From Blastocatellia bacterium (lineage in GTDB: Bacteria > Acidobacteriota > Blastocatellia > UBA7656), in contig DASQDI010000068.1 of assembly GCA_035634255.1 (NCBI GenBank), forward strand, positions 23,695 through 87,694: a DNA stretch of 64,000 bases, read 5' to 3'. Below are positions 51,966 through 54,182 of the stretch, in pieces. Below the pieces are notes generated by a model. The model was not told where the DNA came from. It saw only the letters and a program-made list of their open reading frames with translations, and did not search any database. Position 1 is the stretch's first letter, and the number at the start of each line of letters is the position of its first letter. A program made the translations under genes and the position numbers.

Positions 51966-52598
51966 ATGCAATTGAACTTTATTCTTTTATGGGAAATCTG
52001 GCGCACTCTGAGGCGTCTGGGCGGGCTGGGTCTTATTCTGATGGGTCTGGTCGATAGCTCCGTGATCCCGACTCCGGGAGGTCAGGACGCTCTGACTATA
52101 ATGCTGGCGGCGGGAGAGAAGGACTGGTGGCCTTACTATGGCTTGATGGCCGCGCTAGGCTCGGTGCTCGGCGGGTACGTGACGTATCGGCTCGGGCGCA
52201 AAGGCGGGGAGGAAGCTCTGGAGCAGCGCCTCTCCAAGCGCAAGCGCGAGCGCGTCAAACGGATATTCGAGAAGTGGGGATTCGGGGCGGTCTTTGTTCC
52301 GGCAATAATGCCGCCGCCCGTACCTATAAGCCCCTTCCTGCTGAGCGCGGGGGCGATGGACTACCCGATAAAGAAATACCTGCTCGCTCTGTCGGCGGGG
52401 CGGGTCCTCAGGTTCGGTCTGGTCGCGTATTTTGCTTCGATATATGGGCGGCGGGTGCTGAGGTTCTTCGCCGATAATTACATGACGGTCATCGTCGTGA
52501 CGGTGAGCCTCGCCGTGATCGGGGTGGTGGTCTTCCTCGCTTATCGCGCGCGGCGCAAGAAGGCCGAGGACCATTCCCCCTCTCCGAGCCCAGGTTGA
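51966..52598 (+). CDS. DedA/YqaA-family (VTT/SNARE-associated) membrane protein
   Basis: Four to five TM helices. Conserved DedA-family motif region. Confidence 0.7.
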   Translation: MQLNFILLWEIWRTLRRLGGLGLILMGLVDSSVIPTPGGQDALTIMLAAGEKDWWPYYGLMAALGSVLGGYVTYRLGRKGGEEALEQRLSKRKRERVKRIFEKWGFGAVFVPAIMPPPVPISPFLLSAGAMDYPIKKYLLALSAGRVLRFGLVAYFASIYGRRVLRFFADNYMTVIVVTVSLAVIGVVVFLAYRARRKKAEDHSPSPSPG

Positions 52599-53215
52599 TG
52601 CGTGAGATTGATGGCGGAGGGGACAGGGCTCGAACACTCTTAGAATTTCGAGCCCTTTGCTATACTGCGCCGGTGAATCCAAAGAGCTTGGAGATAAGAG
52701 AACGGTACATCGCGAACCCCAACAAATGTCTCACCTGTAATAAGCCGATTCTTCCTCAACCGGGGCAACGCCTTTTTAATGTACGTCAGAAAAAATTCTG
52801 TAATAGCTCCTGCGCGGCCTCCTTCAATAACCGTCTTTTTCCTAAGAAGAGATTGGCGAGAAAAATCTGTATAACGTGCCTTCAGGGATTCTCTCCTCAC
52901 AACCACCGAATCAAAACCTGTACCGCGTGCCGACCAGCCCGCTCCAGGCCACGCAGGTTAGGTGATTTGACTAGGAAGGAGGTGAGTCGCGTAATCCTCG
53001 GTAGGCATGTGCTACGAGCTATGGTTAATCGACCTAAAGTCTGTGCCATCTGCGGGTATGACAAGTTTGTCGATGTTTGTCACATTAAGCCCGTGGCCTC
53101 TTTCCCGACACAAGCTAAGTTGAGAGAAATCAACGCGCCTGAGAATCTCGTTTATATGTGTCCGAATCATCACCGAGAATATGATCGTGGGCTCTTAAAT
53201 CTCAACGGAGGGTGA
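52595..53215 (+). CDS. HNH endonuclease-domain protein with N-terminal Cys-rich region, in a low-GC patch
   Basis: C-terminal HNH motif (CAICGYDKFVDVCHIKPV...NLVYMCPNHHREYD). Local GC is roughly 48% versus ~67% elsewhere. Its stop overlaps the 3' end of tRNA-Ser. The true start may be internal (for example the GTG near 52676). Confidence 0.6.
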   Translation: MMREIDGGGDRARTLLEFRALCYTAPVNPKSLEIRERYIANPNKCLTCNKPILPQPGQRLFNVRQKKFCNSSCAASFNNRLFPKKRLARKICITCLQGFSPHNHRIKTCTACRPARSRPRRLGDLTRKEVSRVILGRHVLRAMVNRPKVCAICGYDKFVDVCHIKPVASFPTQAKLREINAPENLVYMCPNHHREYDRGLLNLNGG

Positions 53216-53288
53216 GGGATTCGAACCCCCAAATCCTTTCGGACGCCGGTTTTCAAGACCGGTGCAATAGCCATTCTGCCAACCCTCC
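53207..53288 (-). tRNA. tRNA-Ser (anticodon TGA)
   Basis: Reverse-complement reads GGAGGGT-TG-GCAG..., anticodon loop CTTGAAA (anticodon TGA), long variable arm, T-arm GGGGGTTCGAATCCCTC, and acceptor ACCCTCC. No encoded CCA. Confidence 0.85.
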
Positions 53289-53420
53289 CTATTTACTGAG
53301 TTGCAGACAAGAGAGTATAGGCGATGCCGCGTCGAGTTATCAAGATGAGCCTGGATCAATATTGGGCGGTTATCCTGACCTCCGCGGTTGGGTAAACAGG
53401 AAGACGCGGGCAAAAAAATA

Positions 53421-53454
53421 ACGGAAGAGGCACTCGGGCGAGTTTCCCTTCCGT
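53421..53454. terminator. Hairpin flanked by an A-run and a T-run (bidirectional terminator-like)
   Basis: AAAAAAATA-ACGGAAGAGG...CCCTTCCGT-TTTCT. Lies downstream of the HNH gene on the plus strand. Confidence 0.35.
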
Positions 53455-54182
53455 TTTCTGCGTCCCTTCAATGGTTGTGTCCCTCAACCAGAGAAGAAGA
53501 GGAGGTTATTTGACAGCCACAATCCAAATTCCCTCATGGTTGCCGAGTTGACGGGACAATACCATAACTATTAGTTCCAATAATACCGTCGTCTCTCTAA
53601 AAGCAAAGAAAAGTATCACCGCGACCCGCCCGTAAACTTCGGTTTTCAATACAGTAAGCTGGAATACCAATATATTGGGCATGAGCCGGTACTAGTGCGA
53701 CGAACGTTACCCCATGATGGGTTTGGGGCGGGAATCCTGTTTCAGGGGCGAAAAAGAGACGCCTTCAGGGGTCGCGCGAAGGGCGAGATGGCGGGCAGGG
53801 CAGCCATAAAAAGATTGCGGAGCCGCGGATTTTTTGAAAAAGCAAGAGCAGGCAAGGGTAGAGAATCGCCCGGCCCTCAATTTTCCGCGCCCGCGAACGG
53901 GCAACGCTTTTCGCGCGGGAACATCAAAGTCGTCGCGCGAACTGTCAGCCTCGGGCCCTCTGGAAAGGCGGGCGGCCATTATGTAATTACTTTTTACAAC
54001 AGGCGGGTTGTGTTATTATGCGCGCGATAGCGGAACTGATTAACCGTCCCTTACCGGAGCCCGTCGCTGCTGGCCTTACCTGATCGGGACCGCGTTTCAG
54101 ATAAGAACCGCGCCGGGAATATGTCTAAACTCTCTGTCGGAACAAGCGGGTGAGCACCTGAACCCTGAGTCGTAGAGGTAAT

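Follow-up and report, generated by a model that had tools for sequence, protein, structure and literature searches.

A compact homing-type HNH cassette that appears to have replaced the tRNA-Ser(UGA) gene of a Blastocatellia bacterium with a foreign copy

How does a nuclease gene come to end inside a tRNA gene with no integrase nearby? The question is raised by a 64,000-nucleotide stretch of DNA from a Blastocatellia bacterium (contig DASQDI010000068.1), which is referred to as the window in the current analysis. An open reading frame (ORF) of 206 aa (52595..53215, + strand) runs at its 3' end 10 nt into a minus-strand tRNA-Ser(tga) gene, placed at 53206..53288 by both ARAGORN and Rfam (tRNA, 58.1 bits). 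The initial annotation had described this ORF as an HNH endonuclease of low GC content with a stop codon overlapping the 3' end of the tRNA-Ser, a description supported by Pfam and phrog matches, by the 10-nt overlap and by a GC content of 0.48 against 0.63. It had offered a decayed island, a free-standing homing endonuclease or a tRNA-targeting nuclease module as explanations, and of these the second fits the data presented here. The finding is best described as a putative compact cassette of homing type that replaced the host tRNA-Ser(UGA) with a foreign copy. It is reasonably probable, in our view, that a free-standing homing endonuclease has disrupted a tRNA gene of essential function and brings along a substitute for it that is probably resistant.

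The inserted cassette and the empty site

Comparison of occupied and empty loci identifies the segment from 52651 to about 53300 as a compact mobile cassette lying in the variable-arm loop of the tRNA-Ser(UGA) gene resident in Blastocatellia. The same comparison identifies its contents as a free-standing HNH gene with its own putative promoter and an entire second tRNA-Ser(UGA) gene that belongs to another sequence type. The features concerned are the following.

52651..53300, no strand assigned: inserted cassette of about 650 bp, comprising a promoter-bearing left end, the HNH gene, the foreign tRNA-Ser(UGA) and a short tRNA leader
52661..52666, + strand: -10-like box TATACT, 6 nt before the GTG start
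52673..53215, + strand: HNH endonuclease gene, 180 aa, with FCS/MYM-like zinc fingers in the N-terminal part and a beta-beta-alpha-Me nuclease domain in the C-terminal part
53206..53288, - strand: cassette ("replacement") tRNA-Ser(UGA), called by ARAGORN and Rfam, CCA not encoded
52612..52650, - strand: 3' remnant of the native tRNA-Ser(UGA), comprising variable-arm loop, T arm, acceptor 3' strand, G73 and CCA

The right boundary in the window is approximate, the right junction being resolvable only in L018, one of the occupied contigs.

The one empty-site genome recovered is represented by a Blastocatellia contig, L109, which was found by a search for DUF3352 orthologues using the C-terminal 455 aa of an 856-aa neighbour of the locus. 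Its gene order is M16, M16, tRNA-Ser(tga), promoter, a conserved unit resembling a small RNA (sRNA) gene and DUF3352, and no HNH gene is present at its tRNA-Ser locus. The tRNA of L109 is an intact 82-nt gene of the native type, GGAGGGGTATCCTAATGGTAAGGAAGTAGTCTTGAAAACTACCGAGCGAAAGCTCTTGCAGGTTCGAGTCCTGTCCCCTCCG (Rfam 59.2 bits), the whole of which the fragments at occupied sites are halves. L018 shares the M16 flank with L109 (75% identity in nucleotides, 73.5% in amino acids) and matches it in two blocks, 5108-5149 and 5147-5195, which are set 660 bp apart in L018. The insertion in L018 is the 660-bp segment 1184-1843, with a 3-nt overlap at the junction, and it contains the HNH gene together with the second tRNA. 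In L018 the intact tRNA is preceded, at a distance of 22 nt, by a perfect tRNA 5' half with the acceptor sequence GGAGGGG and the UGA anticodon, and ARAGORN calls a tRNA(tga) when this half is joined to the 3' fragment. The two contigs represent a presence/absence polymorphism at one site: L109 is empty and L018 is occupied, and the M16 flank and the two tRNA halves are orthologous between them.

Close homologues of the HNH protein with associated DNA, sharing 67-80% amino acid identity, have been identified in six lineages (window/L003; L001/L013; L018/L019/L007; L008 with L009; L020; L021), and a metagenome scan with an alignment of the close homologues yielded 4 loci. L001 is colinear with the window at about 78% nucleotide identity, and L013, a contig of a GTDB genome of a Blastocatellia bacterium, has nearly the same sequence as L001. 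The HNH gene ends within the same convergent tRNA-Ser(tga) with a 10-nt overlap in every occupied lineage. The neighbouring gene on the HNH side varies with the lineage, being VTT, T2SSE or an M16 peptidase.

The 3' remnant is found in every occupied lineage about 58 nt upstream of the HNH start and reads on the tRNA strand as (CTT)GCAGGTTCGAGTCCTGTCCCCTCCG(CCA), corresponding to the T arm and the acceptor 3' strand. It directly repeats the 3' end of the intact tRNA but belongs to another sequence type; the two copies are about 70% identical and come from two different tRNA-Ser genes. The acceptor 3' strand is CCCCTCC in the remnant and ACCCTCC in the cassette tRNA (pairs GGAGGGG/CCCCTCC versus GGAGGGT/ACCCTCC), and the T arm is GCAGG/CCTGT in the former and GGGGG/CCCTC in the latter. 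Identity between 52614-52635 of the window and the 3' end of the intact tRNA of L109 (5113-5134) is 95%. In alignment A7 the segment GCGGAGGGGACAGGACTCGAACCTGCAAGAGCTTTC is common to L109 and all six occupied loci and divergence sets in after it. The occupied loci track the native sequence up to ...GCAAGAGCTTTC in the variable-arm loop and then enter the element (...TATAAT, 6 nt, ATG AATCC), the left junction being identical in all six lineages.

The fate of the native 5' half differs among the lineages. It is intact in L018 and decayed in L020 and L008, where it lies between the native promoter and the cassette tRNA, and the window, L001 and L021 have lost it by deletion. In the 3' remnant, by contrast, the stretch from the T loop to the acceptor hardly varies across the lineages. 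The contigs L018 and L019/L007 end at an identical base (position 1892 and position 1309 respectively), the one with which the native tRNA 5' half begins. They come from different samples, ENA ERZ27264733 and JGI 3300005440, and the identical ends may reflect an assembly-graph branch from co-existing alleles.

The remnant may also take part in a hairpin.

52625..52656, no strand assigned: hairpin in which the T-loop/T-stem of the remnant (52625-52634) pairs with the left end of the insert (52647-52656)

The stem predicted for the window has 10 bp, and the same topology is seen in the six occupied loci and is absent from the empty site. One compensatory change has been noted, GGGCTCGAA/TTCGAGCCC in the window versus GGACTCGAA/TTCGAGTCC in L001. 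The z values range from -0.2 to -5.1 and are significant in some lineages only, and the hairpin, with any function it might have, is regarded as possible rather than established.

The assignment of the two tRNAs has also been considered the other way round, with the adjacent tRNA native and the fragment foreign, the fragment being identical to the 3' end of a phage tRNA-Ser over 30/30 positions. This has been ruled out by the empty site and by the fragment being of the type of the resident Blastocatellia gene. The tRNA adjoining the nuclease thus appears to be cargo rather than target, a foreign gene carried by the insert. The phage tRNA-Ser(UGA) concerned is located at 8469-8555 of L011 (IMG/VR UViG_3300028400_000003), in a tRNA array that also encodes a tmRNA, and its last 30 nt equal the 3' end of the native Blastocatellia tRNA-Ser. 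L011 is possibly a phage of these Blastocatellia.

These observations bear on the view that the locus is the remnant of an integrase-mediated island or prophage at the 3' end of a tRNA gene, with integrase and cargo lost. The direct repeat resembling a tRNA 3' end that flanks the ORF, together with the low GC, would be expected of such a remnant; a duplication of this kind, proposed for a search in the initial annotation, does occur, at 52612-52650 beyond the end of the ORF that faces away from the tRNA. However, the two repeats derive from different tRNA genes, the breakpoint lies in the variable arm without a 3'-end att core, and an insert of about 660 bp with the same content and the same left junction is found in six lineages. 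No tyrosine or serine recombinase/integrase is encoded within ±6 kb of the HNH gene, and distant relatives in phage tRNA arrays share the compact layout. A decayed island is contradicted by these data and is extremely unlikely. The earlier assumption that the 3' end of the adjacent tRNA had been the integration target has likewise to be given up, that tRNA being foreign and the real target apparently the native tRNA-Ser(UGA) at its variable arm.

The foreign tRNA and the native DNA beyond it

The cassette tRNA is identical in the window, L001, L018 and L021. It shares 55 of 83 positions (66%) with the native tRNA, and the differences, mostly paired changes in stems, affect the variable arm, where they are largest, the T arm and the acceptor pair 7:66. 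It resembles tRNAs of another phylum more closely, being identical at 81 of 83 positions to the tRNA of a Gemmatimonas metagenome-assembled genome (MAG) and at 76-77 of 83 to those of three other Gemmatimonadota. An exact search with its first 55 nt in 185,579 species, one genome being taken per species, gave six species, namely two Blastocatellia and four Gemmatimonadota, and no exact match to the cassette tRNA was found in IMG/VR. The four Gemmatimonadota MAG contigs with a tRNA-Ser(UGA) 76-81/83 identical to the cassette tRNA (L014-L017) have no detectable HNH gene on their 8-kb loci. A leader of about 22 nt with the motif AGTAAA..TA precedes the cassette tRNA in the window, L018, L021 and L008.

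The two Blastocatellia matches of the 55-nt search are the occupied L013 and L012, which has the same promoter and tRNA. L012 (Blastocatellia MAG092, JBIOWC010000431.1) encodes at 2428-2530 a cassette-type tRNA-Ser(UGA) downstream of the native promoter, and no HNH gene is present at this locus. The tRNA of L012 terminates in CCA-TC, a sequence that also flanks the native remnant of the window and of L009; the cassette and Gemmatimonadota copies do not end in this way. From this short sequence match it is suggested that the HNH gene of L012 was probably lost when the two 3'-end repeats recombined, the foreign tRNA remaining fixed at the locus.

Two features are located on the promoter side of the tRNA.

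53314..53343, - strand: native sigma-70-type promoter TTGATA-18-TATACT (promoter scan 10/12), which drives the foreign tRNA
53405-53565, - strand: sRNA-like unit of about 150 nt, with a -10-like box near 53570-53580

A homologous promoter precedes the native tRNA in L109, the decayed native 5' halves in L020 and L008 and the tRNA of the HNH-less L012, and the promoter stands directly before the intact cassette tRNA in the window, L001 and L021. The conserved unit of about 150 nt together with a promoter of the form TTGAAx-18-TATACT has been found in 5 occupied lineages, the contig of L018 ending earlier. The native DNA left at the tRNA locus of the window comprises only the 3' remnant (52612-52650) and this promoter, the native 5' half being lost. 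In the window and L001 the intact tRNA is preceded by the motif TCTTGAAAAC, which was considered as a decayed anticodon loop of the split gene; this reading has been rejected, as the same motif forms the -35 box of the native promoter in the HNH-less L012 and L109.

The low GC of 52.6-53.7 kb had been taken as a sign of foreign DNA as a whole. GC is 0.483 in the HNH gene and 0.476 in 53289-53700, against a mean of 0.629 for the window (sd 0.04, 650-nt windows). The foreign origin holds for the HNH gene, and it does not hold for 53289-53700, which is conserved native DNA also present in the HNH-less L109 and which contains the tRNA promoter and the sRNA-like unit. Only one other patch of comparably low GC occurs in the 64 kb. 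It is situated at 8100-9100 (GC below 0.50, minimum 0.46), is mostly intergenic with a Gly/Lys-rich ORF of 99 aa at 8489-8788 (- strand), and has no relation to the HNH locus. No further copy of the HNH gene and no further tRNA gene have been detected in the window.

The sRNA-like unit is always immediately upstream of the tRNA-Ser promoter. Of five other Blastocatellia lineages, four, L109 among them, are 100% identical to the window over a core of about 105 nt, and the fifth, L008, has five substitutions there, while the flanks of the core are 72-79% identical between the window and L001. The unit ends with a rho-independent terminator whose stem varies through compensatory changes, has a minimum free energy of -56.7 kcal/mol (z -2.8) and matches no Rfam family. 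It includes an anti-Shine-Dalgarno-like ACCUCCU and an ORF of 17 codons (MREFGLWLSNNLLFFSG), which in L008 shows two synonymous changes and one change of Ser to Thr. The unit at 53405-53565 is a candidate sRNA or micro-protein gene.

The gene that follows in the window (54183-56753) encodes the 856-aa, fast-evolving DUF3352-family protein, with a Pro/Glu/Lys-rich low-complexity centre and a C-terminal segment resembling type IV pilins. A gene of this family is kept beside the tRNA-Ser locus across Blastocatellia; the sequence identities are 62.8% between the window and L001 and 34-40% among the window clade, L109 and L020. The genes encoded within ±6 kb of the HNH gene comprise cation efflux, DUF2064, GT87, adh_short, M28, VTT, DUF3352-like, aldehyde dehydrogenase and HAD proteins.

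The nuclease and its relatives in phage tRNA arrays

The true start of the HNH gene is most likely the GTG at 52673, giving a protein of 180 aa, and not the TTG at 52595. This is indicated because most of the close homologues (5/8) are 180 aa long and begin at the residue encoded by 52673, and because a -10-like box lies 6 nt upstream in six lineages; the 26 additional N-terminal codons of the longer ORF are translated tRNA remnant. The box reads TATACT, TATATT, CATAAT, TATAAT, TATCAT or TATTAT at equal distance before the start codon in the six lineages, and it may act as the promoter of the HNH gene. The mRNA is probably leaderless, since no Shine-Dalgarno sequence is present upstream of the start. 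A search for introns in Rfam gave no match at E<=1 in 51.5-54.5 kb of the window or in L018, and the HNH gene, outside any detected intron and with its own -10 box, is of the free-standing type.

The HNH_2 family (PF13391) of Pfam has been assigned to residues 150-201 of the 206-aa ORF (E=1.5e-10, 41.2 bits against a cut-off of 21), and the phage family phrog_1271, "HNH endonuclease", is matched over residues 33-198. Among 24 sequences, with identities as low as 31%, no variation is seen at C124, C127, H137, N158, C163, H167 and D171 (numbering of the 180-aa protein), a set that covers the putative catalytic His/Asn/His and zinc-binding Cys residues. The AlphaFold model (pLDDT 85.5) comprises helical and zinc-ribbon modules in the N-terminal region and a beta-beta-alpha unit in the C-terminal region, the strand-strand-helix order expected of an HNH fold being seen at 134-171. 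The fold matches are weak and are to HNH domains only (Cap5, VcaM4I, T5 SciA and ScoMcrA). Weak PDB sequence and fold matches liken the C-terminal part to the HNH domains of McrA, TagI, Cap5, VcaM4I and T5 SciA, and the CxxC...FCxxxC module to FCS/MYM/TRASH zinc fingers. A close solved relative was not found by PDB sequence and Foldseek searches, and NCBIfam and PADLOC gave sub-threshold matches only, with no match to a defence family.

The gene is intact and under purifying selection, with a ratio of nonsynonymous to synonymous substitutions (dN/dS) of 0.04-0.16 among the lineages. Between the window and L001 it has a dN/dS of 0.137 with dS 0.73, the neighbouring VTT gene giving 0.106 with dS 1.0. 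The GC content at third codon positions (GC3) is 0.41-0.54 across the lineages against 0.74 for VTT. The initial annotation had regarded conservation of the gene at this locus in all relatives with native GC as speaking against a mobile element; in the current analysis the gene is conserved in several relatives but retains its low GC3, and at least one relative that has this locus lacks it. The last codons and the stop of the gene lie over the acceptor and T stem of the tRNA, and all nine close homologues end in GG*.

The nuclease belongs to a large family. A profile search of 1.84 billion representatives revealed 1,778 clusters at 50% identity with E<=1e-30, mostly of about 200 aa, and relatives of about 40% identity lie on phage-like contigs within tRNA arrays. 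Among the best 80 loci in IMG/VR, 66 have a tRNA within 3 kb (381 tRNAs in 498 kb, or 0.77 tRNA per kb). The stop codon overlaps or abuts a tRNA in 26 of the 80, against 8.6% expected at the local tRNA density (p=1.6e-9), and a tRNA is found within 150 nt upstream in 27. An orphan T arm stands just upstream of the start in 22 of these loci, where about 3 are expected. Overlaps with tRNA-Arg on a Dependentiae contig and with tRNA-Met in L106/L107 were forecast from the tRNA-like C-terminal tails of the proteins and then confirmed.

The arrangement of a fragment, an HNH gene and a convergent intact tRNA recurs with tRNA-Met (L106) and tRNA-Arg (L077, L082, L092, L104), and in annotated phages. 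The 3' fragment upstream of the start belongs to a similar, non-identical tRNA in L106, L082, L026, L077 and L092. No native-type 5' halves beside the intact tRNA were recognised by eye in the distant phage relatives. Annotated homologues include gp109 of Streptomyces phage TomSawyer, 8 nt from tRNA-Ile, and HNH proteins of crAss-like phages near tRNA-Lys; these proteins are 33-43% identical to that of the window and are encoded 8-300 nt from tRNA genes. The Dependentiae homologue (L104, Candidatus Dependentiae RXKB01000001.1, 48.9-57.4 kb) is located amid six tRNA genes, numerous small ORFs, Thg1 (tRNA-His guanylyltransferase) and ThyX, a block with the appearance of a tRNA island of viral origin in an intracellular bacterium.

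The phage context of all the relatives at about 40% identity is what would be expected if a fragment of a phage tRNA array, a tRNA-Ser with its adjoining HNH gene, had entered the chromosome once by illegitimate or homeologous recombination at shared tRNA sequence, the HNH gene not being causal and being kept for another reason or by linkage to the tRNA. One such event is compatible with the identical junction in six lineages, and the divergence of the HNH gene is similar to that of its neighbour. Linkage to an essential tRNA does not explain the dN/dS of 0.04-0.16 on the nuclease, however, and the recurrence of the same layout with other tRNA identities in unrelated contigs points to a process tied to the nuclease; the exact search for the cassette tRNA in IMG/VR was also without a match. 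Passive capture of this kind is considered rather unlikely.

Vertical persistence under purifying selection in several lineages, together with the conserved 3' remnant beside the HNH promoter, would also suit a formerly mobile nuclease that has been domesticated by the host and now, for example, cuts elements integrating at tRNA-Ser or serves recombination or repair at the locus. A GC3 of 0.41-0.54 that has not shifted to the 0.74 of the host would be unusual in a long-integrated host gene, the gene is missing in relatives with the same locus (L109) or the same tRNA (L012), and no defence family is matched. The probability of domestication is accordingly judged to be low, well below that of passive capture.

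The insertion point and the largest differences between native and cassette tRNA both fall in the variable arm, and zinc fingers of the FCS/TRASH type are able to bind RNA. The HNH protein could thus be imagined as an RNA-level toxin that cleaves tRNA-Ser molecules, for example in the variable loop, the linked tRNA being resistant and the pair forming an addiction or anti-defence module. The footprint at the locus is one of DNA, however, a gene insertion with displaced halves; PADLOC gave no significant match, and the native tRNA is gone from the genome of the window, which leaves the toxin no target. SegB of phage T4, the closest characterised analogue from a tRNA cluster, is a DNA endonuclease (PMC2330249). 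A toxin acting on RNA is as improbable as domestication.

Proposed homing and rescue, and known systems

The proposed free-standing homing endonuclease would work as follows. The target of the zinc-finger/HNH protein would be the DNA of the native tRNA-Ser(UGA) allele, which it would recognise and cut in the region of the variable and T arms, in the way that T4 SegB acts on the TpsiC stem-loop motif. The break would be repaired from an occupied allele with the tRNA halves as homology, and the cassette would be copied in (homing). Since the cassette tRNA differs at the variable arm, the T arm and pair 7:66, it would itself escape cutting. tRNA-Ser(UGA) is presumed to be essential, and the cassette tRNA would supply the function of the gene destroyed by the insertion, a natural form of "cleave-and-rescue" in place of the intron or intein solution. 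The HNH gene is tightly linked in all lineages to a diverged complete copy of the gene split by the insertion, and nuclease and tRNA would hardly be separable by recombination because they are convergent with a 10-nt overlap.

In the lineage of the window the event would be an old one: the native 5' half is deleted, the foreign tRNA is transcribed from the native promoter, and the element would descend vertically while purifying selection acts on it. Transcription from the strong tRNA promoter must also run antisense through the HNH gene and may hold the expression of that gene low. Autorepression through an operator is known for I-TevI, and the conserved 3' remnant beside the HNH promoter may similarly serve as an autoregulation operator, or as a hairpin.

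Several points weigh against this mechanism. We infer the specificity of cleavage, the resistance of the cassette tRNA and the choice of DNA rather than RNA as substrate. The HNH_2 family includes restriction-type nucleases, and the weak NCBIfam and PDB matches are to McrA-like enzymes. The element looks vertically inherited in the window clade with no sign of recent movement (dS between the window and L001 of 0.73 for HNH and 1.0 for VTT), and the identical left junction could represent a single ancient insertion rather than repeated homing. The sole empty-site genome, L109, is poorly placed among the occupied lineages (DUF3352 identity 34-40%) for proving independent gains. The foreign tRNA always accompanies the HNH gene and the native 5' halves are at differing stages of decay, and the host tree is too poorly resolved for gains to be counted. 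Homing by double-strand breaks would not by itself explain the first arrival of an extra tRNA inside another tRNA gene.

Homing endonucleases within bacterial tRNA genes are known from group I introns (for a review, see PMC3984707), as exemplified by I-Ssp6803I, the enzyme of the cyanobacterial tRNA-fMet intron. As in these introns the endonuclease resides within a tRNA gene and the host tRNA function is kept. RNA splicing achieves this in the introns, whereas here Rfam detects no intron ribozyme, the native gene is dead and a linked replacement gene is present. Integrase-borne islands and prophages likewise use a tRNA gene as landing site, leave a displaced partial 3' end at the far boundary and preserve tRNA function. 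They differ from the cassette, which has no integrase and no att core, a breakpoint in the variable arm and the nuclease as its sole cargo, and in which the function is preserved by a whole second tRNA gene and not by a matching 3' segment.

T4 SegB is a free-standing homing endonuclease of the GIY-YIG superfamily encoded in the tRNA gene cluster of T4 (PMC2330249; PMC13096335). Its 27-bp site contains the TpsiC stem-loop motif, and it homes together with the neighbouring tRNA genes (PMC2330249). The two systems have in common a free-standing nuclease gene among tRNA genes, which in T4 spreads with the flanking tRNAs and replaces the markers of the recipient tRNA region, and DNA breaks at tRNA genes that reshape the tRNA loci. 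They have no sequence relationship, the enzyme described here being an HNH protein with zinc fingers, and SegB is situated between the tRNAs of a phage array, whereas the cassette lies inside a single-copy chromosomal tRNA gene that is destroyed and substituted. HNH genes have been described as the commonest protein-coding companions of tRNA arrays in mycobacteria and mycobacteriophages and in cyanobacterial L-arrays (all8564), and have been proposed to drive the transfer and diversity of arrays (PMC5966550; PMC8421152). These published links are at the level of the array, unlike the lone chromosomal tRNA gene targeted here.

The engineered Cleave-and-Rescue (ClvR) elements combine a nuclease that disrupts an essential gene with a linked, diverged and presumably uncleavable copy (PMC6442612), and the same combination is suggested for the cassette. 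ClvR is synthetic, relies on Cas9 directed by guide RNAs and works in diploid animals, in trans from a different locus; the present element, judged from its arrangement, would be natural, putatively protein-guided and located in the target locus itself. A layout of split target tRNA, overlapping replacement tRNA and conserved 3' remnant was not found in the literature searched.

To our knowledge, homing endonucleases in essential genes have been thought to persist only in self-splicing introns or inteins, or beside their targets. The locus described here would represent a third solution, in which the essential gene is destroyed and a spare is brought along. If the nuclease spares its own tRNA, the cassette would be a natural counterpart of the engineered cleave-and-rescue drives, and it would offer a mechanism for the long-known association of HNH genes with tRNA arrays and for the occurrence of tRNA fragments and duplicated tRNAs in phage arrays. 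It would also provide a route for the horizontal replacement of core tRNA genes across phyla, and point to a family of small site-specific nucleases that target tRNA genes. More tentatively, with some doubt on our part, the large zinc-finger HNH family may as a whole constitute a natural gene drive of this type, cutting tRNA genes, carrying a cleavage-resistant replacement tRNA at its own 3' end, moving tRNAs among phages, bacteria and phyla and leaving replacements behind after loss of the nuclease, as in L012. If this is true, the tRNA-Ser of Gemmatimonadota type fixed in Acidobacteria would be an example of the movement of a tRNA across phyla.

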